A program made the translations under genes and the position numbers. This document shows, in pieces, positions 5,791-54,872 of a stretch of DNA of 64,000 nt (the first letter of the stretch is position 1; each line of letters begins with the position of its first letter). This stretch comes from Minisyncoccota bacterium. GTDB taxonomy: Bacteria; Patescibacteriota; Minisyncoccia; Minisyncoccales; RBG-13-42-11. A model generated the notes under the pieces. That model was not told the origin of the DNA. It did not search any database and saw nothing but the letters and a program-made list of their open reading frames with translations. The stretch is from contig JADHYE010000001.1 of assembly GCA_016782605.1 (NCBI GenBank), positions 11,128-75,127 of the forward strand, read 5' to 3'.

Positions 5791-5860
5791 CTAGGTAGTA
5801 GAAATTCGACAAATTTATTTTTCTTTGCTGCCAGGCAGCAGTCGAATTTTCACTACCTGG
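5791..5860 (+). mobile_element. Family-2 miniature inverted-repeat element, copy A (flanked by CATA repeats)
   Basis: ctaggtagtagaaattcgac ... gtcgaattttcactacctgg inverted-repeat ends; its left end abuts the pcm ATG and the element overlaps the last approximately 15 codons and the stop of def. Confidence 0.75.
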
Positions 5861-6312
5861 CATAGTTTTTGTGGTAAACTCATTTTATCAATAAATAGTA
5901 TTCCGTCCAAGTGGTCAATCTCGTGCTGGAAAACCCTGGCTGACAATCCATCAACTTTCATTTTGATTTTTTCCCCCTGCAGATTAAGAAACTCCAGTTC
6001 CACTTCCTTAGCTCTTTTAATCTTTAAAAACAAACCAGGAAAACTCAAGCATCCCTCTTCCATGACTTCTGTCTTTCTGCTTTTCCGCACGATCTTTGGA
6101 TTTATGAAAACTTGCGACTTTCCTTCAAAAAAAGCAGCGATTATGCTTTTTGATTCGCCGATCTGAGAAGCAGCCAATCCAATGCCGTCTTTTTCCATCA
6201 TTATCTTTTTCATTTCTTCGGCCAATATCTTCACCTCCTCGGTTATCTCCTTGATCGCAGAAGATTTCTTTCTCAGTATTGGATTTGGATATTCTAATAT
6301 TTGCTTACTCAT
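5815..6312 (-). CDS. def: peptide deformylase
   Basis: 165 aa; motifs EGCLSFPG and HEIDHLDG; the C-terminal approximately 15 codons are encoded by the Family-2 element. Confidence 0.9.
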   Translation of the reverse strand: MSKQILEYPNPILRKKSSAIKEITEEVKILAEEMKKIMMEKDGIGLAASQIGESKSIIAAFFEGKSQVFINPKIVRKSRKTEVMEEGCLSFPGLFLKIKRAKEVELEFLNLQGEKIKMKVDGLSARVFQHEIDHLDGILFIDKMSLPQKLCQVVKIRLLPGSKEK

Positions 6313-7534
6313 GTCTTCTTAATGCATCAACTGGTTTTAATTTAGCAGCTGTCCTGGCCGGCAGAACTCCGGAAACGCAACCGATAATAAAAGAAAAAAC
6401 CAAGCCGAAAACAACCAAACCGAGGTTTACCGAAGCAGTAAAATAGAAAACAGGATGCACCTGTCCATAGAATTCAATACCTTTGGCCAGTAAGGAACCG
6501 AGCAGAGTGCCGCCTATCCCTCCAATTAAACCGACAATGCCCGCTTCAAAAAGAAATATCAAAAGGATAGCTGAGTTTTTCGCTCCAATTGCCTTCATGA
6601 TACCTATTTCTTTAGTCCTTTCTCTGACCGAAGTAAACATGCTGTTAGTAATTCCGATGCCCCCGACAATAATGGCAATGCTGGCAAAAGCAAAAATGAC
6701 CATCTGAATTATGCCCAAAATATTGCCGGCTATCGCCCCCATTTTTTCGGAAGTGATAACGGAAAAATCAGCCTCGTCGGTTCCTGACCTTCTCTTTCTT
6801 GTTTCGCTTAAGGCTTCTTCAATTTTTTGAGCCACGACATTCTCATCCACTCCGTCTTCAAGCTTAACCATGGCATAAGCAGCAGTGCCCCGCTTTTCTC
6901 CGGTAACGTCCTGGTAGACTTTCATATCCATATATACCATACTGTCGTCCTGCTTGCTGCCCAAGGAATCGAGCACTCCTGCCACCTGGAATTTTCTTCC
7001 CTTTATCGTTATTTCCGAACCGGCTTTCACTTCCTTTGAGAAAATTTCAGTGGCCACCTGGGAACCGATTAAAACTTCGTTTCCTTTGCTCGGCCACCTT
7101 CCTTCGGTCAAACTCCAGCCCTGAAAAATGCTCAAAATATCCAAACCTTCCTTCCACGGATCATAGCCGGCGATGGCTATTTGCTTTGATTCTTCCTTAA
7201 ACCTGGCAATAGCTCCGGTATAAGAAAATCCCAAAACCTTGTCTACGCCTTCTGCTTTTTTAATCGCTTCAATGTCTTCTTTCTGCAGCTTTGCGCCACC
7301 GAACATCATGGACGTAAGAAGATCTTCATCGCTGCCCGGCATAACCATAACCATTTCTCCGCCCATGGCCTGCAGCTGCTGGTTTATCGTTGATTTCAAT
7401 CCTTCTGACAGAGAAAGCAGGGAAATTATTAAAAAAACGCCAATGACAATGCCTAAAATAGTAAGAAAACTTCTCAATGACCTTGTTCTGATATTTCTGA
7501 CGGCAATATTAAAATATTCTTTTAATTCTTCCAT
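6305..7534 (-). CDS. ABC transporter permease (FtsX/MacB-type)
   Basis: 409 aa; N-terminal TM helix, large periplasmic domain, and C-terminal three-TM FtsX-like region. Confidence 0.8.
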   Translation of the reverse strand: MEELKEYFNIAVRNIRTRSLRSFLTILGIVIGVFLIISLLSLSEGLKSTINQQLQAMGGEMVMVMPGSDEDLLTSMMFGGAKLQKEDIEAIKKAEGVDKVLGFSYTGAIARFKEESKQIAIAGYDPWKEGLDILSIFQGWSLTEGRWPSKGNEVLIGSQVATEIFSKEVKAGSEITIKGRKFQVAGVLDSLGSKQDDSMVYMDMKVYQDVTGEKRGTAAYAMVKLEDGVDENVVAQKIEEALSETRKRRSGTDEADFSVITSEKMGAIAGNILGIIQMVIFAFASIAIIVGGIGITNSMFTSVRERTKEIGIMKAIGAKNSAILLIFLFEAGIVGLIGGIGGTLLGSLLAKGIEFYGQVHPVFYFTASVNLGLVVFGLVFSFIIGCVSGVLPARTAAKLKPVDALRRHE

Positions 7535-8235
7535 AAATAGTCTTTGGCAGTGGAATGGTTTTCAACTATCATGCCGTCTTCAATGTTTACTACCTGTTCG
7601 GCATAATTGGCGATCTTTGCATCATGGGTGACTACGACAACGGTCTTGCCCTCATTCTTGTGAAAATCGGTCAGCACTTCCATTATCTTTTCCCCGGTAA
7701 CAGAATCCAAATTTCCCGTCGGCTCGTCAGCGATAATCACTTCGGGATGATTGGCAAAAGCCCTGGCAATAGCCACTCTCTGGCGTTCGCCTCCGGAAAG
7801 CTCTCCTGGCCCATGGAAAATCCTATCCTCCAAATCAACGGAAACTAAAATGTCTTTTGCCCTCTTTTTTCTTTCTTCCTGGGCTATACCCTGAAAAGTC
7901 ATGGGTAGCATTACGTTTTCAATAGCTGAAAGATTAGAAAGTAAATTGAATTCCTGAAAAATAAAACCGAGTATCTTACCACGAAATTGAGCCAGTTGGC
8001 TTTCTGCCATTAAAGAAATGTCTTTGCCTTTTAAAAAAACTTTTCCCTTTGTCGGCGAATCCAAACAGCCGATAATATTTAAAAGAGTTGATTTGCCCGA
8101 GCCCGAAGACCCCATAATCGCCACAAAAGCGCCTGGAAAAATTTCCAGGCTCAATCCTCTTAAAGCGTGAACTTCTGTCTTTCCTAATTCGTAAGTTCTC
8201 CAGACATTATCCAGTTTAATAATTGGCTCTGCCAT
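7522..8235 (-). CDS. ABC transporter ATP-binding protein (MacB/LolD-like)
   Basis: 237 aa; Walker A GSSGSGKST; signature LSGGERQR; Walker B IIADEPT. Confidence 0.9.
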   Translation of the reverse strand: MAEPIIKLDNVWRTYELGKTEVHALRGLSLEIFPGAFVAIMGSSGSGKSTLLNIIGCLDSPTKGKVFLKGKDISLMAESQLAQFRGKILGFIFQEFNLLSNLSAIENVMLPMTFQGIAQEERKKRAKDILVSVDLEDRIFHGPGELSGGERQRVAIARAFANHPEVIIADEPTGNLDSVTGEKIMEVLTDFHKNEGKTVVVVTHDAKIANYAEQVVNIEDGMIVENHSTAKDYLWKN

Positions 8236-9776
8236 TATCTTAAAATTACTTTTTCTCCCTGCTCCAAACCAGAAACAATCTCCACCATATCATTACTACC
8301 TTTTAACCCGACTTCAATATCTTTTTCCTGAACGTTTCCGTCAACAAGAATTTCAACAAAATCTCTGGAATCCCTCGTACGGATTGCATCCTCAGGAAGA
8401 ATCAAAACATTGTCTTTTGTTTGGGCTTTAATGACAATATCAGCTGACATGCCAGACCTTATGCCTTCTGGAGTATCTTCAAATCCAATAATCGTCTCGT
8501 AATAAACCACTCCGTCAACTATTTTCTCCGCCGGGCTTATTAAAATAATCTTTCCTGTAAAAGTTTTTCCAGAAAAAGCAACCAAAGAAATATCAACAGA
8601 ATTACCGACAGCAATCTTAACCACGTCTTCTTCGTAAATATCTACTTTTATCTCGTAGGAAGCTGTTGGCAAAAGCACTATTACCGCTTCCTGTGAACCT
8701 GCTTGCGCTGACTCGCCTTCATTTTTATTTATCTCAGCAATCTTTCCTTCTACCGGACTGATAATCTTTGACTGCTCAATCTCGTTCTGATAAAGCTGCA
8801 CTTTAGTCAAAGCCTGCTTTACCTGGGTTGAATATAAATCAACGTCTACTTGTTTAGGATCGCCCGCCACCAGATCAAAATTATTCTCTGCTTCCTGGAG
8901 ACTTGCTCTCATCGTTTCAACGCCGGCTTCTGCAGAATAGATTGCCTGCTGATTGGTAATGATACTAGCTAAAGCAGTGTTAATATTTGTTTTTAAAGTA
9001 TCCAAAGAAGCTCTGTCAGCTGCTGAAACCTTGCTTTTATAAACAGGGGCTGTATCAACGACAGAACGTATTGTTTCTAGATGCAAAAATGTCTTCTCAA
9101 GATAATCTTTCATTATGGCCAAAGAAGCTTTGATATTTTCATTGGTCGGATTGGCTGCTAACGCATCTAAATTGCTTTCTGTCGCTTTTTCTACGCTTTC
9201 TATAGTATCCCTGGCTATCATTATTTTTCCGGCATCTGAATCAAAAGTACCAACATAACTGATGACAAACTGCTTCACAAAAACCAAAGCATTGTAAATG
9301 GAAGGATAAGAACTGTCCAAAACAGTCATGGCTGTCTGAAAGCTTTGCTGCAGATCATCTTGAGAGTTTTTAAAGGCAATTTGGGCGTTGTTAAGTTGTG
9401 CCTGGGAGATTTTAACTTCTTCAGTGCTAGCTCCTTCCAGCAGCTTTGTCAGATTTAACTGAGCTATCTCATAAGCAGCTCTCGCTTCCTGAAGCTGAAT
9501 ATTAATATCAGCTGTATCCAATATAGCCAATTCTTGTCCGGCCTGCACTTCATCGCCCACAGCAACATAAATCTTTTCAATTTTCCCGGTATTGCCGAAA
9601 TTAAGACTCAGCTTCTCTCCCTTTTCTACCTGTCCTGTTTCAAAAATCTCCTGACTGACGGTTCCTAAGGTTACTTCAACCAAATTAAACTCAGGCTTCT
9701 TTTCTTTCAAGAAAACCTGATAAACGAAAACTACTAGAACGATTACTGCGCCGATTATTAATATTTGTCTTTTCAT
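8235..9776 (-). CDS. efflux periplasmic adaptor (HlyD/MacA-like membrane fusion protein)
   Basis: 513 aa; N-terminal TM; biotin-lipoyl-like segments (AGQELAILDT); long coiled-coil middle region. Confidence 0.6.
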   Translation of the reverse strand: MKRQILIIGAVIVLVVFVYQVFLKEKKPEFNLVEVTLGTVSQEIFETGQVEKGEKLSLNFGNTGKIEKIYVAVGDEVQAGQELAILDTADINIQLQEARAAYEIAQLNLTKLLEGASTEEVKISQAQLNNAQIAFKNSQDDLQQSFQTAMTVLDSSYPSIYNALVFVKQFVISYVGTFDSDAGKIMIARDTIESVEKATESNLDALAANPTNENIKASLAIMKDYLEKTFLHLETIRSVVDTAPVYKSKVSAADRASLDTLKTNINTALASIITNQQAIYSAEAGVETMRASLQEAENNFDLVAGDPKQVDVDLYSTQVKQALTKVQLYQNEIEQSKIISPVEGKIAEINKNEGESAQAGSQEAVIVLLPTASYEIKVDIYEEDVVKIAVGNSVDISLVAFSGKTFTGKIILISPAEKIVDGVVYYETIIGFEDTPEGIRSGMSADIVIKAQTKDNVLILPEDAIRTRDSRDFVEILVDGNVQEKDIEVGLKGSNDMVEIVSGLEQGEKVILR

Positions 9777-10084
9777 ATGTTTTGCTTAATTATTATTTGA
9801 TGCCAGTCCTCGTAGCAATATATTCCCTGGAACATCCAACCGACGAGAAAACCGGCAGAAAGGGTAAAAAACAAAGGCGAAAATCGATATTTCTTTCTTA
9901 AAAAAAATATAAGAAAGCACAATAAAGTCATTGAAATCAGCCAGTGATGCAAATGAATATGCCATCCCCACACATTAAAAGCCAAACTAAACAAGCCGAT
10001 ATCTCCTGTTTTTTCTCCGGCTAAAAACTTGCCAGTAAAATATCCAGCTGATGAACCTGTAAAAAATCCTAATAAAGTTCCCAT
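9773..10084 (-). CDS. hypothetical small membrane protein
   Basis: 103 aa; two or three hydrophobic helices; 4-bp overlap with the upstream gene. Confidence 0.4.
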   Translation of the reverse strand: MGTLLGFFTGSSAGYFTGKFLAGEKTGDIGLFSLAFNVWGWHIHLHHWLISMTLLCFLIFFLRKKYRFSPLFFTLSAGFLVGWMFQGIYCYEDWHQIIIKQNI

Positions 10085-10091
10085 ATTTTTG

Positions 10092-10163
10092 CGGGGGCGC
10101 CAGGATTCGAACCTAGAACAGAAATTTTGGAGATTCCCATGATAGCCATTTCACCACGCCCCC
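10092..10163 (-). tRNA. tRNA-Trp (anticodon CCA); 3' CCA not encoded
   Basis: revcomp GGGGGCGTGGTGAAATGGCTATCATGGGAATCTCCAAAATTTCTGTTCTAGGTTCGAATCCTGGCGCCCCCG folds as a cloverleaf; anticodon loop CTCCAAA. Confidence 0.8.
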
Positions 10164-10167
10164 GTAT

Positions 10168-10500
10168 TTACATATTTCGTCTTGCGCAAAAAGCGTACTG
10201 CAAGAAATAATCATCAAGGTCTTTAAGCGAACTATTGTATTCTTTGCCACCGGTAACAGCATCGCAAAATAATTCTTTTACTCTGGCAATTTCCCTAATT
10301 CTTCCACTCAATCTTGGATCTATAAGAGTCAAATCAAACAACTCCAAAGCCCTGGCAACTGCTCCCCAAAAAGTATCTTCATCTTCCCCCTGCCATTTTC
10401 TAGCCCTGCTAACCTCACTACCGATATTAGCCATTTGCTCAATTAATGAAAGCTTGAACCATCTCCCCGATGAAAGGTCTTTGTGCAAGGTTTTTGTCAT
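10168..10500 (-). CDS. hypothetical protein (downstream member of an overlapping two-gene cassette)
   Basis: 110 aa; 4-bp ATGA overlap with the upstream ORF; no family recognised. Confidence 0.4.
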   Translation of the reverse strand: MTKTLHKDLSSGRWFKLSLIEQMANIGSEVSRARKWQGEDEDTFWGAVARALELFDLTLIDPRLSGRIREIARVKELFCDAVTGGKEYNSSLKDLDDYFLQYAFCARRNM

Positions 10501-10847
10501 TGTGAAATTAATTTCTCTACGATATTTCTAATTTTATTCTGGATTTCTGGATTATCAACACTACGAGAACGATTGCCGAATGACGGTTTCAGATTAATAA
10601 CCGAATCGAATTCTATCATTTCTTCTTTATTTTTTCCCGGATATATATTTATCCCCCATGTGCTTTCGCGCCTTGATGTTTCCTTTTCCATTAATATTGC
10701 TTCTTCGTCAGCATGCATTTCTCCGCCCACGGCCATTATCCCCTGATCAATATCAACAACCGCTTTTATCAAATCGCCAAACTGCTCTTTTGCCATGTCA
10801 ATAAGCTCTTTTTTACTTATTGGATCTTTAATAATTTTTATCTCCAT
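10497..10847 (-). CDS. hypothetical protein (upstream member of the overlapping two-gene cassette)
   Basis: The probable start is the ATG at 10845-10847 (MEIKIIKD...). The track's longer TTG-initiated version runs into the upstream repeat. Confidence 0.4.
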   Translation of the reverse strand: MEIKIIKDPISKKELIDMAKEQFGDLIKAVVDIDQGIMAVGGEMHADEEAILMEKETSRRESTWGINIYPGKNKEEMIEFDSVINLKPSFGNRSRSVDNPEIQNKIRNIVEKLISQ

Positions 10848-10915
10848 ATTGCTTATTTGCTTGCCGAGCTGCAGCAAGATAGAAGAAGAGATTTATCTCT
10901 TCGCTTCTTTGTGAA
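10848..10915 (+). repeat. Family-3 hairpin-pair element (GCTGCAGC palindrome plus GAAGAAGAGAT-TT-ATCTCTTCGC hairpin) abutting the start codon
   Basis: same two-hairpin layout as the 15138-15270 and 56365-56433 copies. Confidence 0.55.
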
Positions 10916-11021
10916 AACTAACTAAAAAGCACTTATATGAATATTATATCTAAAAAATAGATTATTACAAGCAATTTTTCTGTATTAATGTTTATTTAAT
11001 AAACACTAAAAAACCGTCTTC

Positions 11022-11046
11022 TTGAGAAAACGGCCGAAATCGGCTC
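11022..11046 (-). terminator. terminator-like hairpin with U-run after the small ORF 11106..11285
   Basis: GCCGA-TTT-CGGC stem followed by CGTTTTCTC on the minus strand. Confidence 0.35.
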
Positions 11047-13348: not shown

Positions 13349-13480
13349 CCCTGTATATCAACATCCAGGCATTTTCAATGCGAAAACACCCTGAAGATTG
13401 TCTTTATTTAATAATATATTTAACATAATAACTTTGTTTGAGATTTTAATACGAAGTATTCTGGATGTTGTATTACGGGG
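13349..13480 (+). mobile_element. Family-1 element, copy 2 (flanked by CATA repeats)
   Basis: ccctgtatatcaacatccag ... ctggatgttgtattacgggg; abuts the trmD ATG. Confidence 0.85.
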
Positions 13481-15137: not shown

Positions 15138-15270
15138 ATACCGAGTCCGCCCAAGGCGGGCGAAGGTGAAGAAGAGGTTTACCTCTTCGACTTACTTTTC
15201 TAATACCGAGTCCGCCCAAGGCGGGCGAAGGTGAAGAAGAGGTTTACCTCTTCGACTTACTTTTCTAATT
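15138..15270 (+). repeat. Family-3 hairpin-pair element present as a perfect 2 x 65-bp tandem duplication filling the nusB-rnc spacer
   Basis: The unit ccgagtccgcccaaggcgggcgaaggtgaagaagaggtttacctcttcgacttacttttctaata occurs twice with 100% identity (15141-15205 and 15206-15270). It starts right after the rnc ATG, and the last four codons and stop of nusB lie in the second unit. Confidence 0.85.
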
Positions 15271-33575: not shown

Positions 33576-34031
33576 AGTGGTAATACCTAATTAAGTCGCG
33601 GCTCGCGCATATTATATATTAATATATTGCCTTCGGCGAATGTGCTACTGCCGCTCTTTAGAAGACGAACGCAGTGAGGCGGGAAAAAAGATTTATCTCT
33701 TTGACCACTCTCGGTGCTCAATGAAGCTAAAGCTTCATTTCGGTCTGCGCTTCCGTGAACGGAAGCTTGCCTTCTAACGTTTTCCACCTCATCGGCGGAA
33801 ATCCTGTTTTCCTATACGGAAGAACCTGATGGTTCTTCCGACCCATCTCCGATATGGGATACTATTACGTTAATTATTAATTGTTCAAGCGAGGCAACAA
33901 GTTTTAAAGTAGCTCTCGGAAGCCTATTTGCATGGTTCGCCGGAAGCGAAAATAGGCTGAGAGCGCAACTCCCAAAATCTCGCAGGGATTTTGAGAAGCG
34001 GTACTTTCAAAACTTAGTTGCCGAGCACCCC
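33576..34031 (-). promoter_or_regulatory. 456-nt rplK leader built from modules shared with the rplJ and rpsK leaders
   Basis: 33651-33739 is near-identical to 3639-3727; 33820-33870 (GGAAGAACC..GGTTCTTCC and CCCATATCGGAGATGGG hairpins) is shared with 57721-57790; the approximately 30 nt before the ATG are shared by all three. Confidence 0.5.
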
Positions 34032-34845: not shown

Positions 34846-34930
34846 CCCCGCACCACTTTGCAGAAGAAATCTTCTTTTTAATATTTTGAAACAACTAATG
34901 AGATTTAAGTTGCATCAAAGTGGTGCGGGG
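34846..34930. repeat. 15-bp perfect GC-rich inverted repeat (CCCCGCACCACTTTG) with a 55-nt spacer between gyrB and secE
   Basis: arms at 34846-34860 and 34916-34930; one arm lies next to the secE -35. Confidence 0.6.
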
Positions 34931-36872: not shown

Positions 36873-37019
36873 CCCCGTATATCAACTTCCAGAACCAAAC
36901 GCCGTTAGGTGCGTTTTAGCCTGTAAGCGGTTATTTGATAATAATTTCATATTTACAACCATTTGAGTTATGCCCGGCGTTTGTTTAGAACGCACCTTAC
37001 TGGAAGTTGTATTACGGGG
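36873..37019 (+). mobile_element. Family-1b element (copy 3): Family-1 inverted-repeat ends with an unrelated palindromic core
   Basis: ccccgtatatcaacttccag ... ctggaagttgtattacgggg; the core has its own inverted repeat (aaacgccg..ggtgcgtt / aacgcacc..cggcgttt); left flank cata, right flank catt. Confidence 0.75.
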
Positions 37020-41790: not shown

Positions 41791-41922
41791 CCCCGTATAT
41801 CAACATCCAGGCATTTTCAATGCGAAAACACCCTGAAGATTGTCTTTATTTAATAATATATTCAACATAATAACTTTGTTTGAGATTTTAATACGAAGTA
41901 TTCTGGATGTTGTATTACAAGG
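41791..41922 (+). mobile_element. Family-1 element, copy 4 (flanked by CATA; variant right end ..ttacaagg)
   Basis: its terminal 8 bp supply the last codon and TAA stop of gatA. Confidence 0.85.
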
Positions 41923-43345
41923 CATATAATTTTGATATTTCTAAAATTTTATCTTCTTCGAACGGCTTGCCGATTATCTGAAGTCCGACAGGAAGATTGT
42001 CTATCTTACCGACAGGCAAGGAAACAGCCGGCAATCCAGCCAAACTGACAGGACCGGTAAAAACATCGCAAAGATACATTTGAAGCGGGTCTTTAATCTT
42101 TTCTCCGAGCTTGAAAGCCGGAGTCGGCGCAACGGGTGTCATTAAAACGTCTACCTTTTTAAACGCCTTTTCAAAATCCTGTCTTACCAAAGTCCTTACT
42201 TTCTGGGCTTTCAAATAATAAGCGTCGTAATAACCGCTGGACAAAGCATATGTTCCCAAAATAATCCTGCGGCGTACCTCGTCTCCCAATCCCCTGCCCC
42301 TTGAACGCAAATAAACTTCCATTAAATCATTACTGCTTTTGTCCTGGTGTCCGTATTTTATGCCATCGTATCTTGCCAAATTAGCAGAAATCTCACAAGG
42401 CATAATTATGTAATAAGTAGCTATAGCGTAATCAGTATGAGGTAAACTTACTTCCATTATCTTTGCGCCCATTGCCTCGTATTTCTTTATCGCCTCTTTC
42501 ACTATTTTTTCCACTTCCTTATCAACTTCTTTGACAAAATATTCTTTGGGAACGCCTATTTTCAAGCCCTTGATTTTCAATCCATTGTTTTCAACCCTCA
42601 TATCAACCGAAGTTGAATCCATCTGATCTTTGCCCCTTATTACATCAAAAACAATCTTGCAGTCATCTATATTCTTGGTTAAAGGCCCTATCTGGTCAAG
42701 AGAAGAAGCCATAGCAATCAGTCCGAAGCGGGAAACTGCGCCGTAAGTCGGCCTTAACCCGACCACTCCGCAAAGAGAAGCAGGGTAACGTATCGAACCA
42801 GCTGTATCAGAACCCAAAGCGTAAACTGCCATGTCTGCGGCAACAGCAGCTGCTGAACCAGATGAAGAGCCGCCTGTTACCCTGGTTAAATCGCAAGGAT
42901 TCTTTGTCGGACCGAAGGCTGAATTCTCTCCGGAAGCTCCCATGGCAAACTCATCCAAATTGGTTTTTCCCAAAATAACCGCCTTTTCCTTTTTCAATTT
43001 CCTGACAACCGTAGCCTCATAAAGAGCAACGTAGTTTTCTAAAATCTTTGAAGCAGCCGTACACTTCAACCCTTCAACCATAATATTGTCTTTTACAGCG
43101 CAAGGAATGCCTGCCAGAACCGGTATGTTCTCGCCTCTCTTGATTATATCATCAACTTCTTCTGCTTGCTTTAAAGCTGTTTCCTCGATAACGGACAAAA
43201 AAGCAAAAATGTCTTTGTCTTTTTCCCTTATCTTTTCCAGATAAGCTTTGCACAATTCAACAGATGAGAACTCTTTGTTGACTAATCCTTGATGCGCCTG
43301 AGCAATGGTTAGATCCTGTATCTTCACCCCGTTAGAAGTTTGCAT
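41915..43345 (-). CDS. gatA: Glu-tRNA(Gln) amidotransferase subunit A
   Basis: Amidase signature is present. The first 6 codons (MQTSNG) fall inside the left inverted-repeat end of the element at 43327-43455, and the last codon plus stop fall inside Family-1 copy 4. Confidence 0.9.
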   Translation of the reverse strand: MQTSNGVKIQDLTIAQAHQGLVNKEFSSVELCKAYLEKIREKDKDIFAFLSVIEETALKQAEEVDDIIKRGENIPVLAGIPCAVKDNIMVEGLKCTAASKILENYVALYEATVVRKLKKEKAVILGKTNLDEFAMGASGENSAFGPTKNPCDLTRVTGGSSSGSAAAVAADMAVYALGSDTAGSIRYPASLCGVVGLRPTYGAVSRFGLIAMASSLDQIGPLTKNIDDCKIVFDVIRGKDQMDSTSVDMRVENNGLKIKGLKIGVPKEYFVKEVDKEVEKIVKEAIKKYEAMGAKIMEVSLPHTDYAIATYYIIMPCEISANLARYDGIKYGHQDKSSNDLMEVYLRSRGRGLGDEVRRRIILGTYALSSGYYDAYYLKAQKVRTLVRQDFEKAFKKVDVLMTPVAPTPAFKLGEKIKDPLQMYLCDVFTGPVSLAGLPAVSLPVGKIDNLPVGLQIIGKPFEEDKILEISKLYAL

Positions 43346-43455
43346 ATGTATTATTGGCCAAAAAAGACCAAAGGTTCTTTTTTGGCGGAAGTTTAACGAA
43401 ATAAAGTAATTGTTTAATCTTTAGCATGTTTAACCGTGGCAAACTTCTAACGGGG
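43327..43455 (+). mobile_element. Family-1c-like element: 17-bp perfect inverted-repeat ends (CCCCGTTAGAAGTTTGC) flanked by TTCA repeats, spanning the gatC-gatA spacer and the gatA start
   Basis: ends at 43327-43343 and 43439-43455 with TTCA on both sides; an internal CCAAAAAAGACC..GGTTCTTTTTTGG hairpin; the gatA ATG lies inside the left end. Confidence 0.6.
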
Positions 43456-43456
43456 T

Positions 43457-43741
43457 TCATTTCAAAATTGATTTTACTTTTAAATAATCTTCTTTTTTAT
43501 CGGGAAACGATTCTATTAATTTCCTGCTGCTCCCCTTTCCTTTTGGCTCATCTTTCCTTAATACGTTTTCAACTTTGATCGAATGGCTGGTCGGCTCAAT
43601 GCCGGAAATATTCACTTCTTTCAGTTTTTCAAAATAATCCAAAATCGAAGAAAGCTCTTTCTGATATTTTTCAATTTCTTGATCAGTTAAGCCCAATCTG
43701 GCAAGTTTAGCTATATGTTGTACTTCTTCTTTAGAAATCAT
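43457..43741 (-). CDS. gatC: Asp/Glu-tRNA amidotransferase subunit C
   Basis: 94 aa GatC-like. Confidence 0.8.
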   Translation of the reverse strand: MISKEEVQHIAKLARLGLTDQEIEKYQKELSSILDYFEKLKEVNISGIEPTSHSIKVENVLRKDEPKGKGSSRKLIESFPDKKEDYLKVKSILK

Positions 43742-47113: not shown

Positions 47114-47245
47114 CCCTGTATATCAACATCCAGGCATTTTCAATGCGAAAACACCCTGAAGATTGTCTTTATTTAATAATATATTTAACATAATAACTTT
47201 GTTTGAGATTTTAATACGAAGTATTCTGGATGTTGTATCACGGGG
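47114..47245 (+). mobile_element. Family-1 element, copy 5 (flanked by CATA)
   Basis: abuts the rseP ATG and fills the frr-rseP spacer. Confidence 0.85.
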
Positions 47246-48845: not shown

Positions 48846-49847
48846 TTATCTTTTATTCATTATGCTCTTTTTGTAAACATCAAGGTTTTCCAAAACTACG
48901 CCCGTTCCTTTGGCCACGCAAAGCAAAGGGTCTTCAGCCAGAAAGCAAGGGACGCCTGTTTCCCGGGAAATCATTTCTGTAATATTTCTTAACAATGCGC
49001 CGCCACCAGAAACGATCATGCCTTTGTCGATTATGTCGGCTGACAATTCAGGCGGCGTATCCCTTAATACAGTTTTAATAACATGGATAATATCTCCCAA
49101 GATTTCAGAGATCGCTTCGGCAATTTCGTTGGAAGAAATTTTAACTGTCCGGGGCAAACCGGAAACCAAATCCCTGCCGCGAATTTCTATAAATCTTGGC
49201 TCTTTTTCCGGTATAGCTGTACCTATTTTCATTTTAACCTCCTCTGCTGTCTGTTCTCCGATAGCTAAATTGTATTTTTTCTTTATATAATCTGAAATGG
49301 CAAAATCCATTTTGTCTCCGCCGATCCTGATAGAATTACAAGTGACTATTCCCCCCAAAGATATGACAGCTATTTCAGAAGTCCCGCCGCCGATATCAAC
49401 AATCATATTGCCAGAACAGGAATTAATCGGAATGCCAGCGCCAATGGCTGCTAAAATCGGCTCTTTTGCCAAATATGCCTGTTTGGCACCCGCATTCAAA
49501 GCAGCTTCAATTACCGCTCTTTTCTCGGTTGAGGTAATGCCAGCTGGCACGCCTATCATTAATTCAGGTTTTAAGAAACGCCAAAAACCGCATACTTTAT
49601 CAATAAAATGCCTTAGCATTGCCTGAGTCACCCTGAAATCAGCAATCACCCCGTCTTTTAAAGGACGATAAACCCTAATTGTGTCTGGAGTACGACCGAT
49701 CATTTCTTTTGCTTCTTCCCCGATTGCCAGAATTCTGTTCTCTTCTAGGGCAACAGCAACAACTGAAGGCTCTTGCAAAACCACTCCTTTACCGGGAAGA
49801 AAAACCAAAGAATTGGCAGTACCCAAATCTATACCTATTTTTCTCAT
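48846..49847 (-). CDS. second MreB-like actin homolog
   Basis: 333 aa; IGIDLGTANSLVF; paralog of the 43738..44790 gene. Confidence 0.8.
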   Translation of the reverse strand: MRKIGIDLGTANSLVFLPGKGVVLQEPSVVAVALEENRILAIGEEAKEMIGRTPDTIRVYRPLKDGVIADFRVTQAMLRHFIDKVCGFWRFLKPELMIGVPAGITSTEKRAVIEAALNAGAKQAYLAKEPILAAIGAGIPINSCSGNMIVDIGGGTSEIAVISLGGIVTCNSIRIGGDKMDFAISDYIKKKYNLAIGEQTAEEVKMKIGTAIPEKEPRFIEIRGRDLVSGLPRTVKISSNEIAEAISEILGDIIHVIKTVLRDTPPELSADIIDKGMIVSGGGALLRNITEMISRETGVPCFLAEDPLLCVAKGTGVVLENLDVYKKSIMNKR

Positions 49848-49877
49848 AAATATATTAACAATTAATTCAAATCTATC

Positions 49878-51074
49878 TTATCTTAATTCCCGTCTTTTGA
49901 CAAATATACCAACTATCAAAACTACAATAACTACGAAAATACCGCCGAAAATAAACACTAAATCATATCCCAGAAAACCAATAAGCAAGCCGGAAACCAA
50001 AGCTCCTAAAGCAACGCCTAAAGGAGCAAAAACAGTATCAATGGCACTGGCTTCTTCCGGCTCTGTCTTAAAGCTTCTGGAGACCAATCCTGAACGGCCA
50101 GAATTGCAAATTAAAGCGCCAGCAGAACGTAAAACATTAATCAGCAAAACGCTGAAAAAATTCAAAAAGCCACTAGCTAGACCAAAGACAATCGATAATA
50201 GTCCAGCAATTAATCCGCCCCGAAAAATACTTGCTCTACTATTGCTCTTTTCTAAATATTTAATAAGTAAGAAAGATAAGGGAAGAAACAAAACTGAAAA
50301 AACTGAAATAAAAATCAGAATTAAATTCTGCGACCAGACCAATTGCTCTTTTAAAAATAAAACGAAGAAAGCATGGTAAAAACCGGCCAAAAGCAAAACG
50401 GAAAAAGAAATCAAAAGAAAAGGCAGAATACTTCTCTTTTTTAAAAGTTGAAAAATCTTTTGGTAGTTATTCTGGGAATCCCTGACCTTAAAGCCTGCAT
50501 CCGTTAAAGTTCTCGCTGGTTTCCTTAGTTTAAAAAAGCAAAAAAAGGCGGTAAAAAGATGAAGTGCCATGCTTAAAATAAACACGCCGACAAAATTAAA
50601 CTGCCAGACAAAAAAAGCGCCGATAGCCGGAGCAATGGCATCAGCATAAAAAGGAGCAGAATAAAACCAACCGAAAGACCTGTCAGCATTCTCTAAAGGA
50701 AAACCCATTAAAATAGACCTAATTGAAACAAAAAACAAGGCAGCAGAAACCCCTAGCAAAACCTGCCAGAAATAAAACAATGCCTGGTTTTGAATTAAAA
50801 TCATACCCAGAGCGTAAAGAGCGTAACCAAAAATTCCAATAGCTGAAAGTATGGCCGGATTAATCTTGTGATTCAAAAAACCGGCAATCGGAGCGAATAA
50901 AGCAAGAGGCAAATAAATAAGCAGAAAAGCATAACCAACCTCAGGTAAAGACAAACCACGAGTAACCAAAAACAAAGGGAAATACAAAGAAAATGTTTTG
51001 TAGCCAAACAATAAAAAGAAATGGACTATGGTTGCGTCCATGGTTATCTTTTCTATCTTGGGAATGAAAAACAT
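49878..51074 (-). CDS. MFS-type transporter
   Basis: 398 aa; about 12 predicted TM helices. Confidence 0.5.
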   Translation of the reverse strand: MFFIPKIEKITMDATIVHFFLLFGYKTFSLYFPLFLVTRGLSLPEVGYAFLLIYLPLALFAPIAGFLNHKINPAILSAIGIFGYALYALGMILIQNQALFYFWQVLLGVSAALFFVSIRSILMGFPLENADRSFGWFYSAPFYADAIAPAIGAFFVWQFNFVGVFILSMALHLFTAFFCFFKLRKPARTLTDAGFKVRDSQNNYQKIFQLLKKRSILPFLLISFSVLLLAGFYHAFFVLFLKEQLVWSQNLILIFISVFSVLFLPLSFLLIKYLEKSNSRASIFRGGLIAGLLSIVFGLASGFLNFFSVLLINVLRSAGALICNSGRSGLVSRSFKTEPEEASAIDTVFAPLGVALGALVSGLLIGFLGYDLVFIFGGIFVVIVVLIVGIFVKRRELR

Positions 51075-51090
51075 ATTCAGTTATTCTAGC

Positions 51091-51129
51091 AAAAAAAATA
51101 GCGGGTAGCCATTACAATTGACTACCCGC
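51091..51129 (-). terminator. intrinsic terminator after the TPR gene
   Basis: GCGGGTAG..CTACCCGC stem followed by TATTTTTTTT on the minus strand. Confidence 0.6.
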
Positions 51130-51134
51130 ACTGC

Positions 51135-51893
51135 TCACAGAGCAGATAACTTCTCCTCAACTCCACTGATGTGGAATTTAGCACTCAGCCCAGTCTCCTT
51201 CTGAGACCTCTCATATAACTTTATGGCCGTTCTGTACTCCGTCTTTGCTCTTCGTGTCTCTCCGATTTCCCTAAGGGCATCGGCCTTGTTCTGTTTGGCA
51301 TGCCCCGCTGTTCGGAGATCTCCCTTTGCCAAAGCAGTCTTATGCACCTTTTCGCACACTTGAACACTCTCAGCGAACCTTCCCTCACGACGAAGGGTAA
51401 TGGCCTTGGTATTCCAAACCGATGGCTCTTCGGAGAATGATGCAACAGCCTTATTGATAACTGACCAAGTCTCTGGCTTTTTATCTAAAAGCCAAAGTGC
51501 CAAGGGCAGCCCATTCAAACAGGAAATTTTCCTGCTTTTGTTTCTGGTATTAAGAGCTTCCCGAAACGAAAGCTCTGCTAGTTTAAGGTTGCCCTTCCTG
51601 GTTGCGACCGGGCCTTTGATTGAGATATAATAGTAATCCCATCCCAATATCCGGTTAGCCTCGGCAATCTCTTCTTTGCCGGTTAAACTTACTTTGTTCT
51701 TCTTGATCAAGGCAACTGACTCATCATATTTACCATCTGCATACAATTTCTTAGCCAGTTTCAAGATCTTTTGGGCCGGCATCGCTTTGGCAATTTCCTG
51801 CTCTTTTTTAAAGAACAGATAAACCATTGCATTGCAACCGGTAACAAAGCCCAATAGCAAGATAAATCCTGCTGAAAGAAAAAACTCTGCCAT
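51135..51893 (-). CDS. TPR-repeat protein with N-terminal TM helix
   Basis: 252 aa; tetratricopeptide-like repeats. Confidence 0.5.
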   Translation of the reverse strand: MAEFFLSAGFILLLGFVTGCNAMVYLFFKKEQEIAKAMPAQKILKLAKKLYADGKYDESVALIKKNKVSLTGKEEIAEANRILGWDYYYISIKGPVATRKGNLKLAELSFREALNTRNKSRKISCLNGLPLALWLLDKKPETWSVINKAVASFSEEPSVWNTKAITLRREGRFAESVQVCEKVHKTALAKGDLRTAGHAKQNKADALREIGETRRAKTEYRTAIKLYERSQKETGLSAKFHISGVEEKLSAL

Positions 51894-52192
51894 CTCGGCA
51901 CCTCCTTTCTTTATTTCTTATCTTTCGTTAATATATTAATCAAATCCTTACCTTGCAGGATATAATATGAATTCAACCTCCATCTCTCTTCTCTGCTCCT
52001 CACCATATATATCAACCCATATTGGACATAAAATGAACCACCGCTCCCCTCCTTCTACAATCACATATATTACCACGCTCTTTCCAAAATGTCAACCCCA
52101 TTAGAAGTCCGCCTTGCCGGAGGCATGGCGACAGCCACCAAGGGGGCAGCTTACTTCTAACGGAGTCAAGATTGAGGTATAATAATCATATG

Positions 52193-52264
52193 CCAGGTAG
52201 TGAAAATTCAACCACTGCCGCGGCAGTGAAAAAAATAATAATTTGTCGAATTTCTACTACCTAG
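52193..52264 (-). mobile_element. Family-2 element, copy C, inverted relative to copies A and B and abutting a plus-strand gene (flanked by TATG)
   Basis: ccaggtagtgaaaattcaac cactgccgcggcagtg ... tcgaatttctactacctag; the ATG at 52266. Confidence 0.75.
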
Positions 52265-52265
52265 T

Positions 52266-53570
52266 ATGACCAAAAAGACAAAAACAATACTGTTTTTAGC
52301 CTGCTTACTTGCATTCATCCTGTTAGCTCCCTCAATAGTCCTGTACTCCCAAGGATACAGAATTGATTTTAATCCTCCAGAAGGCGGAAAAATGATTACC
52401 CAAACCGGAGGCCTTTTTTTGAAAGTCACGCCCAAACAAACAGATATTTATATTGACGGCAAACCTAAAAAAAGAACTGATTTTCTATTCGGTTCTGTTT
52501 TAATTGAAAACCTCATTCCTGGAAAGTACAAAGTAGAAATCAAAAAATTAACCAGCCAGGAAGAATACTATCCCTGGGAGAAAAACCTGGAAATACGGGA
52601 AAAACAGGTAACTGAAGCCAAGAACGTTGTCCTTTTCCCGAAAAACGTTAATTTCAACGTCTTATCAACCAACGTAGAACAGCTTTGGCTTTCTCTGGAC
52701 CAAAAGAAACTAATCTTAAAGGAAAATGAAAAAGCCAGCTGGTCCTTAAAGCTTTACGACCCGGAAAAGAATATAAAAAGCTATTTAATAAGCGACGAGG
52801 ATTTCTTCACGAAAGAACCCCAATTAATCAATCTGAAATTCTCGGGAGACTCAAGAAGTATTAATCTGGAAGTCAGCATAAAAGAAGCAATACAATCTTT
52901 TTCTCTGCAACTTGACCAAGCAAAACCAACTTTAAATAAAAAAACAGCAGCCACAACGACAACTGGAAACGCTGCTATCTCGCAACAAGCAGGCAATGAT
53001 ATATATTATCTGGACAGTTTCGGCTATCTTTTCAGGAATAAAGAAAAGCTGGCAGAAACTCCCTTTCAAACAAAACAAGAAACAGAATATGCTTTAGATA
53101 TTTTCAACGGCAACATATTCTTAAAAGAAAACGACAAACTGTACAAATTCAATTACAATCTGAAAACATTTGAACATTTCTTTGACGGAATCAATATCTT
53201 AAAGCTTTCTCCGGACAATAAAAAACTGCTTTACGCTTCAAACAATGAAATGTGGATTCTTTTCCTGGAAGACAAAATCGACCAGCCGCAGAAAAAATCA
53301 GGAGAGAAAATCTTTTTAATCCGCTTATCAGACCAAATCACAAGCATCTCCTGGATAAACGACAATTACCTGGCTTTTCTTGCCGGCAATACCGTTAAAA
53401 TCATTGAAATAGACGACAGGGACAGAATAAACGTTATAGACATCTTTGAAACAAAAAACCTCCCTCAAGAAGGAAGCATTAATGAAATGTCCTGGAACAG
53501 GTTTGACAATAAAATCTATCTCTTGGACGAAAACGGCTATTTATATAGCTCTAACGTCCTGCTCCCGTAA
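52266..53570 (+). CDS. hypothetical secreted or anchored protein (N-terminal TM, PEGA-like segment, beta-rich C-terminal region)
   Basis: 434 aa; no family recognised. Confidence 0.4.
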   Translation: MTKKTKTILFLACLLAFILLAPSIVLYSQGYRIDFNPPEGGKMITQTGGLFLKVTPKQTDIYIDGKPKKRTDFLFGSVLIENLIPGKYKVEIKKLTSQEEYYPWEKNLEIREKQVTEAKNVVLFPKNVNFNVLSTNVEQLWLSLDQKKLILKENEKASWSLKLYDPEKNIKSYLISDEDFFTKEPQLINLKFSGDSRSINLEVSIKEAIQSFSLQLDQAKPTLNKKTAATTTTGNAAISQQAGNDIYYLDSFGYLFRNKEKLAETPFQTKQETEYALDIFNGNIFLKENDKLYKFNYNLKTFEHFFDGINILKLSPDNKKLLYASNNEMWILFLEDKIDQPQKKSGEKIFLIRLSDQITSISWINDNYLAFLAGNTVKIIEIDDRDRINVIDIFETKNLPQEGSINEMSWNRFDNKIYLLDENGYLYSSNVLLP

Positions 53571-54269
53571 TTTGATTTTCTTTTTAAAAGCTTCCCAGCC
53601 CATTTCTCCGGTATTGGCTATAACGCAAACTTCCTTGAACTGGCAATAACGACACTGCCAATTATCGGGGTAATCCGATAATCTGTCGGGAATAACGTTC
53701 TTATCAATCTTCTTTCTAATACCAGCCAAAAAGTCCAAAAGAGAAAGGGCGCATTTTTTATCGTATTTTACGACAAAATCCTTCAGCTGCTGGTTATCTT
53801 TATTAACGTAAAGCAGTATTCCTTTAGGAATCTTAAAATAATGGAGATAAAGCTGAAGCTGAGCAATATTTTCCTCCTTTGGCTCAGTTAACTTACCAAA
53901 AATCATGCTGTTCATACTTTTAATATCCAAAACATATAGTTCCTTGCCATCGCTGATTATGGCATCAGCCCTGCCTGAAATCAGTTCCTGAGGAGGAATA
54001 TTAACTTCGGCAGCCACCACATGGATTTCCCTGGTGCTCAAAAGCGGCTTCATAATAAGCTGATGGATGTGGTCGCCATGGTCAAACAGCCTTAGAATAT
54101 TGGCCTCCATCTCCTTTCTGGGAACATTCTTGAACTTAAAAAACAAAGCTCTGCCGCATTTGCCTGCGTCAGTAATATAAAAGTGATGCTGCTCTTTATC
54201 TCTTTGCCTGTCCAAATAGAATTTATCGATTATATCTTTAAGAAACATAGAGTTTATCTCTTCTGCCAC
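53541..54269 (-). CDS. Cas4-like PD-(D/E)xK nuclease with 4Fe-4S cysteine cluster, stand-alone
   Basis: N-terminal Cys (ITDAGKCGRALFF); GDHIHQ; D..ELYVLDIK; QLQLYLHYF; C-terminal CRYCQFKEVC (Cx2Cx5C); overlaps the rpsI stop by 16 nt. Confidence 0.6.
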   Translation of the reverse strand: MAEEINSMFLKDIIDKFYLDRQRDKEQHHFYITDAGKCGRALFFKFKNVPRKEMEANILRLFDHGDHIHQLIMKPLLSTREIHVVAAEVNIPPQELISGRADAIISDGKELYVLDIKSMNSMIFGKLTEPKEENIAQLQLYLHYFKIPKGILLYVNKDNQQLKDFVVKYDKKCALSLLDFLAGIRKKIDKNVIPDRLSDYPDNWQCRYCQFKEVCVIANTGEMGWEAFKKKIKLREQDVRAI

Positions 54270-54739
54270 TGAGGAGCACGACGAGCGCGCTTCAATCCGA
54301 ACTTCTTTCTTTCCCTCATCCTCGGGTCTCTTTTCAAAAAACCAGCTTTTTTCAACTGTTTCCTCAATTCTGGATCGAATAAAACTAAAGCGCGAGTTAA
54401 ACCGTGCCTGACAGCTTCAGCCTGGGAAGTCGTCCCTCCCCCTTTAACTTTTACTGAAACCTGAAATTTGTCAGAATAATCAGTCAAAATCAAAGGAGAA
54501 AAAATAATACGCTGAAGGTATTTTGTCGGAAAATAATTTTCAAAAGTCCTTGTATTTATTAAAAAGGTCTTTTCTTTTTGAACAGAAATTCTCACCCTGG
54601 CTACAGCTGTCTTTCTCCTGCCTATGCCCTCAAAATACCTGGCTACTTTAGGTTTAACTGTTACTTTGGCAGTTTTTTTAGCTGGAGCTTTTTTGACTTT
54701 CTTTACTGTTTCTTTTTTTGTTTTTTTAGCCTTTGGCAT
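54254..54739 (-). CDS. rpsI: 30S ribosomal protein S9 with lysine-rich N-terminal extension
   Basis: C-terminal GGGTTSQAEAVRHGL..KKFGLKRARRAPQWQKR; start taken at MPKAKK; the track's MDVDIRG extension is derived from the repeat element. Confidence 0.9.
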   Translation of the reverse strand: MPKAKKTKKETVKKVKKAPAKKTAKVTVKPKVARYFEGIGRRKTAVARVRISVQKEKTFLINTRTFENYFPTKYLQRIIFSPLILTDYSDKFQVSVKVKGGGTTSQAEAVRHGLTRALVLFDPELRKQLKKAGFLKRDPRMRERKKFGLKRARRAPQWQKR

Positions 54740-54740
54740 A

Positions 54741-54872
54741 CCCCGTATATCAACATCCAAGCATTTTCAATGCGAAAACACTCTGAAGGCTGTTTTTATT
54801 TAATAATATATTCAACATAATAACTTTGTTTGATATTTTAATACGAAGTATTCTGGATGTTGTATTACAGGG
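54741..54872 (+). mobile_element. Family-1 element, copy 7 (flanked by CATA; variant right end ..ttacaggg)
   Basis: abuts the rpsI ATG; its last 8 bp supply the final codon and TAA stop of rplM. Confidence 0.85.

Follow-up and report, generated by a model that had tools for sequence, protein, structure and literature searches.

Short inverted-repeat elements on start codons of a Patescibacteria genome encode the C termini of upstream proteins and have relatives that encode a GIY-YIG nuclease

We analyzed a stretch of 64,000 nucleotides from contig JADHYE010000001.1 (assembly GCA_016782605.1), hereafter called the window, in which we counted 14 short elements that are bounded by terminal inverted repeats (TIRs) and flanked by 4-bp target site duplications (TSDs). 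Twelve of the 14 lie exactly on a start codon, the C termini of the proteins Def, RplM, and GatA are encoded by such elements, and the same TIRs bound elements of 309 to 354 nt in many Patescibacteria metagenomes, where they enclose an open reading frame (ORF) for a GIY-YIG nuclease. The explanation that is probably the best for these data is a superfamily of tiny start-codon-targeting TIR elements with a cognate GIY-YIG nuclease, which would mobilize them and the ORF of which begins at the captured host ATG. The window has a GC content of approximately 39%, and the majority of its genes are on the minus strand. The best matches of Def, RplM, and other window proteins are in Candidatus Nealsonbacteria or Patescibacteria metagenome-assembled genomes (MAGs), and the source of the window is a Nealsonbacteria-like Patescibacteria genome.

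Elements in the window

A repeat search of the window revealed three families: Family-1, with seven 132-nt copies that are 92 to 98% identical and lie next to unrelated genes; Family-2, with three copies of 70 to 73 nt; and Family-3, with a tandem pair and one further copy, which is treated separately below. The TIRs of Family-1, Family-2, Fam4, and Fam6 are 15 to 20 nt long, and the elements measure 70 to 147 nt, with no long ORF within any of them. On the strand of the adjacent gene, Family-1 and Family-2 copies are arranged as TATG, element, TATG, the second ATG being the start codon of the downstream gene. Family-1 has the form 5'-TATG / CCCCGTAATACAAC.TCCAG ... CTGGA.GTTGATATACRGGG / TATG-3', whereas the Family-2 termini are CCAGGTAGTGAAAATTCGAC ... 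GTCGAATTTCTACTACCTRG. For Family-1 copy 1 and Fam4, which both lie within an ATGA stop/start overlap, the flanking tetranucleotide is TGAA and not TATG. Two relatives were compared with the window, namely, L121, a syntenic contig with a Def 77% identical to that of the window, and L247 (GCA_964481125.1), with DNA 93 to 97% identical to window positions 43462 to 63722. The copies that had not been listed before are the Family-1 TIR variant at 36873-37019, Fam4, Fam4b, Fam6, and Family-2 copy C; with them, the feature spans about positions 5017 to 59983. The 14 elements are as follows.

5021..5152, minus strand: Family-1 copy 1, 132 nt; TSD TGAA at 5153-5156 and 5017-5020; ATGA overlap of PCMT and mltG
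5791..5860, minus strand: Family-2 copy A, 70 nt; TSD TATG at 5861-5864 and 5787-5790; def-PCMT boundary
13349..13480, minus strand: Family-1 copy 2; TSD TATG; on the trmD start codon
34846..34930, minus strand: Fam6, 85 nt; TIR CCCCGCACCACTTTG; TSD TTGA; TTGACA-like site 5' of secE, off the start codon
36873..37019, minus strand: Family-1 TIR variant, 147 nt; flanks AATG and TATG; other interior; before gyrB
41791..41922, minus strand: Family-1 copy 3; TSD TATG; end of gatA in the 5' TIR; the right-hand TSD provides the ATG of a downstream 176-amino-acid (aa) ORF
43327..43455, minus strand: Fam4, 129 nt; TIR CCCCGTTAGAAGTTTGC; TSD TGAA; gatC/gatA ATGA overlap
47114..47245, minus strand: Family-1 copy 4; TSD TATG; start of rseP (M50 protease); frr stop native; absent in L247
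47812..47943, minus strand: Family-1 copy 5; TSD TATG; start of frr; holB stop native; absent in L247
52096..52165, plus strand: Fam4b, 70 nt; Fam4-like TIR; TSD TCAA; 5' region of a 434-aa gene, off the start codon
52193..52264, plus strand: Family-2 copy B, 72 nt; TSD TATG; start of the plus-strand gene 52266-53570; orientation as the gene
54741..54872, minus strand: Family-1 copy 6; TSD TATG; end of rplM in the 5' TIR; the right-hand TSD provides the rpsI ATG (54739)
57054..57185, minus strand: Family-1 copy 7; TSD TATG; start of rpsD; rpsK stop native; absent in L247
59907..59979, minus strand: Family-2 copy C, 73 nt; TSD TATG; start of the 433-aa gene 58604-59905, 3' of a TATAAT-N6-ATG context

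The window copies fit the operational definition of miniature inverted-repeat transposable elements (MITEs), since they have TIRs and TSDs proven by empty sites, are small and multicopy, and contain no transposase ORF. A search of the window with Rfam at gathering thresholds retrieved only tRNAs, indicating that the elements are not a curated RNA family. The 16-mer TTCGCATTGAAAATGC, searched across genome contigs, gave only chance matches in unrelated taxa, and the matches to the TIR pattern in IMG/VR were equally chance matches, none of which had a partner TIR. At the sites of Family-2 copies B and C (window 52170-52192 and 59984-60000), a TATAAT sequence is found 6 nt 5' of the ATG, a context kept in L247. 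It looks like a leaderless-type promoter, in which case the element ORF would hold the leaderless position.

Empty sites and recent mobility

Element-free relatives have uninterrupted junctions at the insertion sites. In L121, these are found at def/PCMT (AAAAACTATGCCGCTTATTG), at PCMT/mltG (AAAAAATGAAAAAAT), and before trmD (GTTTTTATGCTTAAA), and L247 provides empty sites for Fam4b (AAATGTCAAGATTG), Family-2 copy B (AATCATATGACCAAAAAG), Family-1 copy 6 at rplM/rpsI (AAAATATGCCAAAGGTTAA), and Family-2 copy C (TATAATGTTATTATGAGCAAAAAAG). The alignment of the window with L247 is interrupted exactly at the elements, and the flanking alignments have 4 nt in common. The elements are precise insertions with 4-bp TSDs, of which TATG, TGAA, and TCAA were established by empty sites. 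L247 lacks Family-1 copies 4 to 7, Family-2 copies B and C, Fam4b, the Family-3 copy at 56367, and a 150-nt block before rpsK. Over the ~20-kb alignment at about 5% divergence, there were eight presence/absence differences between the window and L247, indicating that the elements have moved recently. An element that carries its own ATG and generates no TSD was ruled out by the TGAA, CATG, TGTG, TCAA, and TTGA duplications and by the empty sites.

Older events were also detected. In a 62%-identical lineage (L122 to L124, 10430-10530; Def P0010 to P0014), the same def/PCMT start contains a decayed Family-2-like insertion, and the element-derived Def tail ..QKLCQIMKFRFLGCRSKG (165 aa) is conserved over many contigs of this lineage. 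This insertion is an old, independent event of which the coding half has been retained. Tandem element arrays with just one TSD copy (TAAA or TATG) between members occur in L155 (130-270), L194, L203, and L138; the single copy points to repeated insertion into a regenerated target. A block of ~1 kb with a TPR-repeat gene (51093-52088; gene at 51135-51893, minus strand) was present in the window and in L257, which is the window's own genome, and not in L247.

Insertion at start codons

In the window, each of the 10 insertions flanked by TATG falls on a start codon, whereas starts make up just 46 of its 363 TATG sites (P ~ 1e-9), so the location at start codons is not due to chance. We then scanned metagenomes with a 5' TIR pattern, by which the 5' TIR was fixed, and obtained ~125 TIR matches from at least 120 loci. 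Pairing of 5' and 3' TIRs gave at least 76 unique insertions with sizes of 66 to 70, 135 to 155, 225 to 237, 309 to 315, and 354 nt. The following counts refer to the matches listed and, for the first two, to elements of at least 130 nt. (i) The TSD was TATG at 48 of 50 unique sites. (ii) After in silico excision, 40 of 48 sites fell where an ORF with a length of 60 codons or more begins. In the same contigs, 14% of all TATG sites are such 5' ends (P ~ 8e-27), and this background rises to 54% when limited to start-like and intergenic TATG sites (P ~ 2e-5). (iii) There was no flipped copy among the ~50 unique sites; correspondingly, the plus-strand gene in the window has a plus-oriented copy. 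The host genes at the metagenome sites are diverse housekeeping genes. The TSD tetranucleotides found overall include TATG, TGAA, TTGA, TCAA, CTTG, TAAA, CATG, and TGTG; start-codon use is strong but not absolute.

An alternative account of this distribution is that start codons are not targeted at all: the enzyme would prefer TATG (or NTG-like sequences), and selection in a genome that is more than 90% coding would spare only the insertions that duplicate a start and do no damage to either neighboring gene. We consider this possible but rather doubtful. TATG is indeed the normal start context, being present at 46 of the 67 first in-frame ATGs of the window and at 39 of the 64 starts that gene callers assign in its relatives, the target logo contains little information beyond TATG, and two window copies as well as the 66- to 70-nt class are at other tetranucleotides in promoter-like DNA. 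Selection alone does not readily account for three other observations: the same contigs contain 382 intergenic nonstart TATGs, nearly as many as the 448 unoccupied start-like ones, and insertions are nevertheless concentrated at ORF 5' ends; the orientation with respect to the nonpalindromic TATG is invariant; and the def/PCMT start was struck independently in the 62%-identical lineage.

As a separate observation, T is strongly favored at position -1 of the start in the window, L121, L122, and L247, and the resulting TATG is the tetranucleotide duplicated by the elements. Elements with CC..GG TIRs and 4-bp TSDs also occur in promoter-like DNA, at 34846-34930 and 52096-52165 in the window and in the 66- to 70-nt class of the metagenomes. 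Their sites are TTGA before CA (TTGACA), TCAA, and CTTG followed by AC, so that sequences similar to a -35 box may be a second preferred target.

Effects on protein termini

The first-pass annotation of the window had claimed that these insertions remodeled protein termini. To reconstruct ancestral ends, each element was removed together with one TSD copy. The claim holds for the C termini of Def, RplM, and GatA, which are element encoded, and not for the N termini, which are essentially preserved. (i) The gene def (5815-6312) ends ..QKLC QVVKIRLLPGSKEK-stop, of which the last 14 residues and the stop codon are contributed by Family-2 copy A (5791-5860), as had been proposed. Def is now 165 aa long and ends ..QKLCQVVKIRLLPGSKEK-stop; the predicted ancestor had 156 aa and ended ..QKLCRLLKS-stop, and the closest orthologs without the element (P0002 to P0007) have 156 aa and end ..QKLCRLLKN. 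The overall change was from ..CRLLK(N/S) to ..CQVVKIRLLPGSKEK. (ii) The gene rplM (54865-55215) ends TAT GCC CTG TAA, or ..YAL-stop; the stop (54865-54867) and the last codon are in the 5' TIR of Family-1 copy 6. The protein ends ..KYAL-stop compared with ..KYAKG-stop in the predicted ancestor, and its orthologs (117 aa, 87 to 97% identity) end ..KYAKG. (iii) The gene gatA (41915..) ends TAT GCC TTG TAA, again ..YAL-stop, with the stop (41915-41917) and the last two codons in the 5' TIR of Family-1 copy 3. In both gatA and rplM, the codons that follow TAT-G belong to the 5' TIR of a Family-1 copy, in agreement with the earlier suggestion that this family gave both proteins the same ending. The ancestral GatA probably ended ..KLYGNN-stop before the change to ..KLYAL-stop, as judged by reconstruction; no close element-free relative was retrieved for this protein. 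Orthologs from element-free genomes, in which the same terminal residues would have spoken against an element origin, end RLLKN in Def and KYAKG in RplM, as reconstructed.

The three C termini were rewritten because the upstream gene formerly overlapped the targeted start codon. Since the elements insert at start codons, any upstream gene that overlaps such a start loses its last codons; the terminal effects, previously treated as incidental, are thus a consequence of systematic insertion at start codons. The remodeling itself is ordinary in kind. MITEs that add codons or stops are already known.

Preservation of the N termini has two sources: the duplication of the ATG as part of the TSD and the junction of G and TG, which recreates a GTG. 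At Family-2 copy A, the PCMT start is the ATG in the right TSD copy. At Family-1 copy 1, the PCMT stop is retained within the left TSD copy, and the junction G/TG (5021-5019) forms a GTG start that gives back MKKS.. of MltG, the MltG of L121 likewise beginning MKK... At Fam4, the junction GTG (43327-43325) gives back MKIQDL.. of GatA; the ATG of the ORF track (43345) is inside Fam4, and Met1 of GatA orthologs aligned with window residue 7. The variant before gyrB (36873-37019) is a member of a widespread 147- to 150-nt class, and the gyrB start is the flush ATG at 36871-36869. The track starts of mltG (TTG, MIYG), gyrB (MVLEVDIRG), rpsI (MDVDIRG), and gatA (MQTSNG) are all in element sequence, as had been noted. 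These starts are artifacts or at best alternatives. For gyrB and rpsI this had been recognized, and rpsI of L247 is called from the flush ATG (161 aa); the starts of gatA and mltG had been thought possibly real, whereas the junction GTGs, which restore the ancestral N termini, are more likely.

Public gene calls (L249 to L256 and L260 to L269) run host genes into the 3' TIR and the ends of upstream genes into the 5' TIR. DUF134, for example, is called at 100 to 103 aa versus 89 to 94 aa from the flush ATG, the 89-aa case being cut by a contig end.

Full-length elements encode a GIY-YIG nuclease

None of the window elements reaches the 309 to 354 nt seen in metagenomes. All 17 elements of this size among the matches listed contain one ORF of 100 to 115 codons, the stop of which is 10 nt before the host ATG. 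This ORF begins at the host ATG in the left TSD, crosses the 5' TIR (MP[R/S]NTTSS), and stops at a TGA in the 3' TIR. Its product of ~101 aa is a GIY-YIG nuclease (Pfam PF01541, E values of 1e-16 to 1e-18) that consists of the catalytic domain only. Residues Y14, Y25, R35, E38, and E71 are invariant in 34 aligned sequences, and the ends of these proteins, MP[R/S]NTTSS.. and ..FG.GS, are the TIRs read as codons. The dN/dS ratio among the copies is ~0.09, at a dS of at least 0.7, which is near saturation; sequence comparison thus places the ORF under strong purifying selection. We retrieved at least 826 protein clusters; the best 120 of them are 93 to 144 aa long, mostly 100 to 103, and the databases annotate the clusters only as "GIY-YIG nuclease family protein" or "excinuclease ABC subunit C." In an hmmsearch against the Protein Data Bank (PDB), the best match was 1ZG2 (E value of 1.6e-7), followed by 1YWL and SLX1 7WME, and the top three hits of a Foldseek search with a low-confidence AlphaFold model were 1ZG2, 1YWL, and Slx1 6SEI. 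Homology assigns the nuclease to the Slx1/UPF0213 branch of GIY-YIG proteins as a minimal single domain.

Different TIR types are associated with different nucleases. The element in L209, which has Family-2 TIRs, carries its own, 51% identical GIY-YIG protein, which starts at the TSD ATG (MPGSENS..); this N terminus is also that of the Family-2 upstream ORFs of the window. In L197, a third type of TIR is paired with a GIY-YIG protein that is 57% identical. Furthermore, an identical 101-aa protein was found 5' of at least three different host genes in mixed flank combinations, indicating several identical copies per population. Full-length copies also share orthologous positions in diverged genomes, for instance, before DUF134, DUF72, and an 81-aa HTH gene. 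By tblastn, no GIY-YIG ORF was found in the window, and all window copies are therefore nonautonomous.

Two side observations concern these contigs. An identical GIY-YIG element has the mixed left/right flanks A-X, B-X', B-Y, and A-Z (L260 to L268), which are due either to ectopic recombination among copies or to chimeric assembly at the repeat. In addition, LAGLIDADG endonuclease genes, which are selfish nuclease genes of another kind, adjoin trmD (L123, 4524-5327) and a GIY-YIG element (L260, 442-1488) in related contigs.

The main rival to mobilization by the GIY-YIG nuclease views the elements as ordinary MITEs that a DDE transposase encoded elsewhere (IS1380-, IS701-, or IS5-like) moves in trans, with the nuclease as cargo or a separate selfish colonizer. 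TIRs of 20 nt and a TSD of fixed 4-bp length and variable sequence (TATG, TGAA, TTGA, TCAA, CTTG, and TAAA) are classic hallmarks of DDE enzymes; IS1380 elements have CC ends and TSDs of 4 to 5 bp (ISfinder family tables); and our literature search found no known GIY-YIG transposase. We nevertheless regard a DDE partner as unlikely. Among the matches listed, from at least 120 metagenome loci, we found neither a transposase ORF between TIRs nor a nonnested element of more than 379 nt, and each of three TIR families holds its own divergent GIY-YIG protein that fills the element from TIR to TIR. The conserved protein ends encoded by the TIRs and the purifying selection on the nuclease also speak against this rival. 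As to a nonmobile origin, host regulatory modules (leader ORFs and hairpins) conserved in place, with ancestral terminal overlaps, would fit the full-length copies at orthologous positions (DUF134, DUF72, and the 81-aa HTH gene), at a dS at or near saturation, and the stable hairpins described below, and are highly improbable in view of the exact-TSD presence/absence polymorphism between 93 to 97% identical genomes, the seven 92 to 98% identical copies at unrelated genes, the tandem arrays with one TSD, and the element-free orthologs that have the reconstructed termini.

Proposed mechanism

As the comparisons show, insertion at a start codon in fixed orientation duplicates the host ATG on both sides of the element. 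The downstream gene keeps its N terminus, and an overlapping upstream gene runs into the 5' TIR, by which it gains element residues and a stop codon. We propose the following for mobilization and translation. The GIY-YIG nuclease, probably expressed by hijacking the promoter, ribosome-binding site, and start codon of the host gene, may act on its cognate TIRs and so mobilize full-length and short copies alike. Translation of the host gene would resume at the second ATG through termination-reinitiation, or begin there once the TIR hairpin has been unwound or processed. We see an even chance that the elements form an undescribed class of transposable elements whose sole gene, an Slx1-like GIY-YIG protein, mobilizes itself and its MITE derivatives, borrowing the promoter, ribosome-binding site, and ATG of the host and returning translation to it 10 nt after the stop.

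The short copies retain features of this arrangement. In the six TATG-flanked Family-1 copies of the window and in the gyrB variant, an upstream ORF of 41 to 46 codons is kept, with its stop 10 nt ahead of the host ATG; that of the gyrB variant has 46 codons and stops 10 nt short of the flush ATG. Because of two mismatches between the TIRs, TGA is present only in the 3' TIR, and the observed orientation would consequently be the sole one that stops before the host gene. The elements fold as stable hairpins (z scores of -3.0 and -4.4), and processing of the TIR hairpin by an RNase III-type enzyme into a near-leaderless mRNA is a live alternative to reinitiation. Inspection of the 3' TIR by eye revealed nothing convincing as a Shine-Dalgarno sequence or an outward promoter.

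A number of points weigh against a start-codon-targeting superfamily mobilized by its nuclease. (i) The preference for start codons could partly reflect selection, TATG being the normal start context. (ii) The upstream ORF is truncated in 5 of 12 elements of the 150-nt class and in all copies with a length that is not a multiple of 3, and the Family-2 upstream ORFs end at variable positions. Reinitiation therefore cannot be the sole route of host-gene translation, and obligatory termination-reinitiation is weakened by the truncated ORFs in many short copies. (iii) ATG or GTG is frequent at codon 9 of the nuclease, and some copies may therefore use an internal start. (iv) The AlphaFold model of the nuclease has a pLDDT of 62, which is low confidence. 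(v) The scan was limited to the matches listed, with a preset 5' TIR; a rare DDE partner could be missed, and the conservation of the 5' TIR is partly ascertainment. (vi) The window contains no GIY-YIG ORF, so that mobilization in trans is only putative for this genome. (vii) GIY-YIG enzymes are nickases or double-strand cutters that leave 1- to 2-nt overhangs, a 4-bp TSD is a signature of DDE transposition, and we know of no GIY-YIG enzyme that performs strand transfer.

Family-3 and other leader blocks

The Family-3 copies recovered by the repeat search are as follows.

15138..15269, minus strand: Family-3 tandem; between the nusB TAA and the rnc TATG; absent in L121
56367..56422, minus strand: Family-3 copy, 56 nt; between the native rpsD TAA and the rpoA TATG; no TSD; absent in 96% identical L247

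The tandem unit measures 65 to 67 nt and includes the last 12 nt of nusB, TTA GAA AAG TAA. Family-3 consists of GAAGAGG..CCTCTTC, TTCACCTTCG, a variable hairpin, and CTCGGTA and is sited between stop codons and TATG starts; hairpin 2 has compensatory changes in 5 of 6 pairs across nine copies. With neither TIR nor TSD, Family-3 was ruled out as the same kind of element. It is a conserved two-hairpin module that donates no stop codon, in contrast to what the first-pass annotation had assumed. The rpsD stop, which had been attributed to the Family-3 copy, is a native TAA, since L247 has AAAATAA/TATG without the element. Similarly, the last four codons and stop of nusB had been ascribed to the tandem repeat, whereas the native sequence, three codons and the stop, was coduplicated.

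Further Family-3 sites are found at approximately 63895-63962 in the window and in L155, L144, L122, L168, L152, and L164, among many contigs of the Candidate Phyla Radiation (CPR). Composite blocks of 150 to 320 nt with common hairpin modules are located at 57644-57792, 33576-33880, and 3589-3806, directly 5' of the ATG of rpsK, rplK, and rplJ. L247 lacks the block at rpsK, L121 lacks that at rplJ, and related sequences occur in L155, L140, L220, and L237. These blocks could be nested small elements or ribosomal-protein leaders.

Relationship to known elements and significance

We compared the elements with five known systems. (i) Like bacterial MITEs, such as the Neisseria Correia elements, the Rickettsia palindromic elements (RPEs), and ERIC, RUP, and BOX, they are short, multicopy sequences with TIRs, TSDs, and RNA hairpins and without a transposase, which may be cotranscribed with neighboring genes or add codons or stops to them. 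The target of Correia elements is TA, and insertions of RPEs are in frame within genes. Unlike these MITEs, the present elements target the start codon itself (TSD TATG) in fixed orientation, form an ORF that opens at the duplicated ATG and closes shortly before that of the host gene, and have as their only longer relatives elements that encode a GIY-YIG nuclease instead of a DDE transposase. (ii) With IS200/IS605 and IStrons, they share a strict orientation to a short nonpalindromic target and many short nonautonomous derivatives. IS200/IS605 elements have subterminal hairpins instead of TIRs, no TSD, an HUH TnpA, and an orientation set by the direction of replication, whereas those described here have 20-nt TIRs, a real TSD, and an orientation by gene and not by strand, and no TnpA was found. 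(iii) The nuclease resembles UPF0213 (BH0048, 1ZG2; EF2693, 1YWL) and eukaryotic Slx1 in being a single domain of ~100 aa with the GIY, YIG, Arg, and Glu motifs. In a phylogenomic survey of GIY-YIG proteins, vertical inheritance and a nonselfish nature are ascribed to the Slx1 lineage, and the selfish enzymes are placed in the UvrC+ lineage (PMC1564403). The nuclease gene described here differs from Slx1 and UPF0213 genes in being bounded by TIRs and TSDs, present in multiple copies, and devoid of a start codon of its own. (iv) Free-standing GIY-YIG homing endonucleases (I-TevI and the phage Seg and Mob enzymes) are likewise encoded by selfish intergenic GIY-YIG genes, with recurrent occupation of the same host site in different genomes. 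They have large DNA-binding domains, no TIRs or TSDs, and spread to allelic sites by recombinational repair, without recognition of their own ends (PMC1564403). In contrast, the elements studied here are at dozens of unrelated genes and have TIRs, TSDs, and nonautonomous derivatives, and a C-terminal DNA-binding module of the I-TevI type (NUMOD, zinc finger, or HTH) is not present in the ~101-aa nuclease. (v) The nearest published hint is the report of nonintron insertions that encode GIY-YIG proteins in rRNA genes of CPR bacteria, as far as the parts of that report considered here go (Tsurumaki et al. 2024, PMC11270868). Those insertions are from the same phylum and are likened to ours by description only; TIRs, TSDs, start-codon targeting, and MITE derivatives are not described in those parts.

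A full-text literature search, which covered few subscription journals, found no published GIY-YIG elements with TIRs and TSDs. The start-codon target, the design of an ORF from a captured ATG, and a partner whose sole product is a minimal Slx1-like GIY-YIG protein are outside the described families, and the elements look like an undescribed kind of transposon.

These findings have several implications. At element sites, the protein termini in CPR databases are systematically wrong, owing to 3'-TIR extensions of host genes and element-encoded C termini. As to the evolution of protein tails, the Def of a whole clade (165 aa, P0010 to P0014) bears a C-terminal tail from an old, decayed insertion. 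If a 101-aa GIY-YIG protein does mobilize the elements, it would add a new enzyme superfamily to the transposase types, the ~310-nt element would rank with the smallest known mobile elements that are autonomous, and the abundance of tiny "GIY-YIG nuclease" and "excinuclease ABC subunit C" genes in Patescibacteria MAGs would be explained. Tool developers could also take an interest in a compact nuclease that has cognate ends and a short, defined target. For the element, the capture of a start codon, with translation returned to the host gene, would be an unusual solution to life in a streamlined genome that is more than 90% coding.

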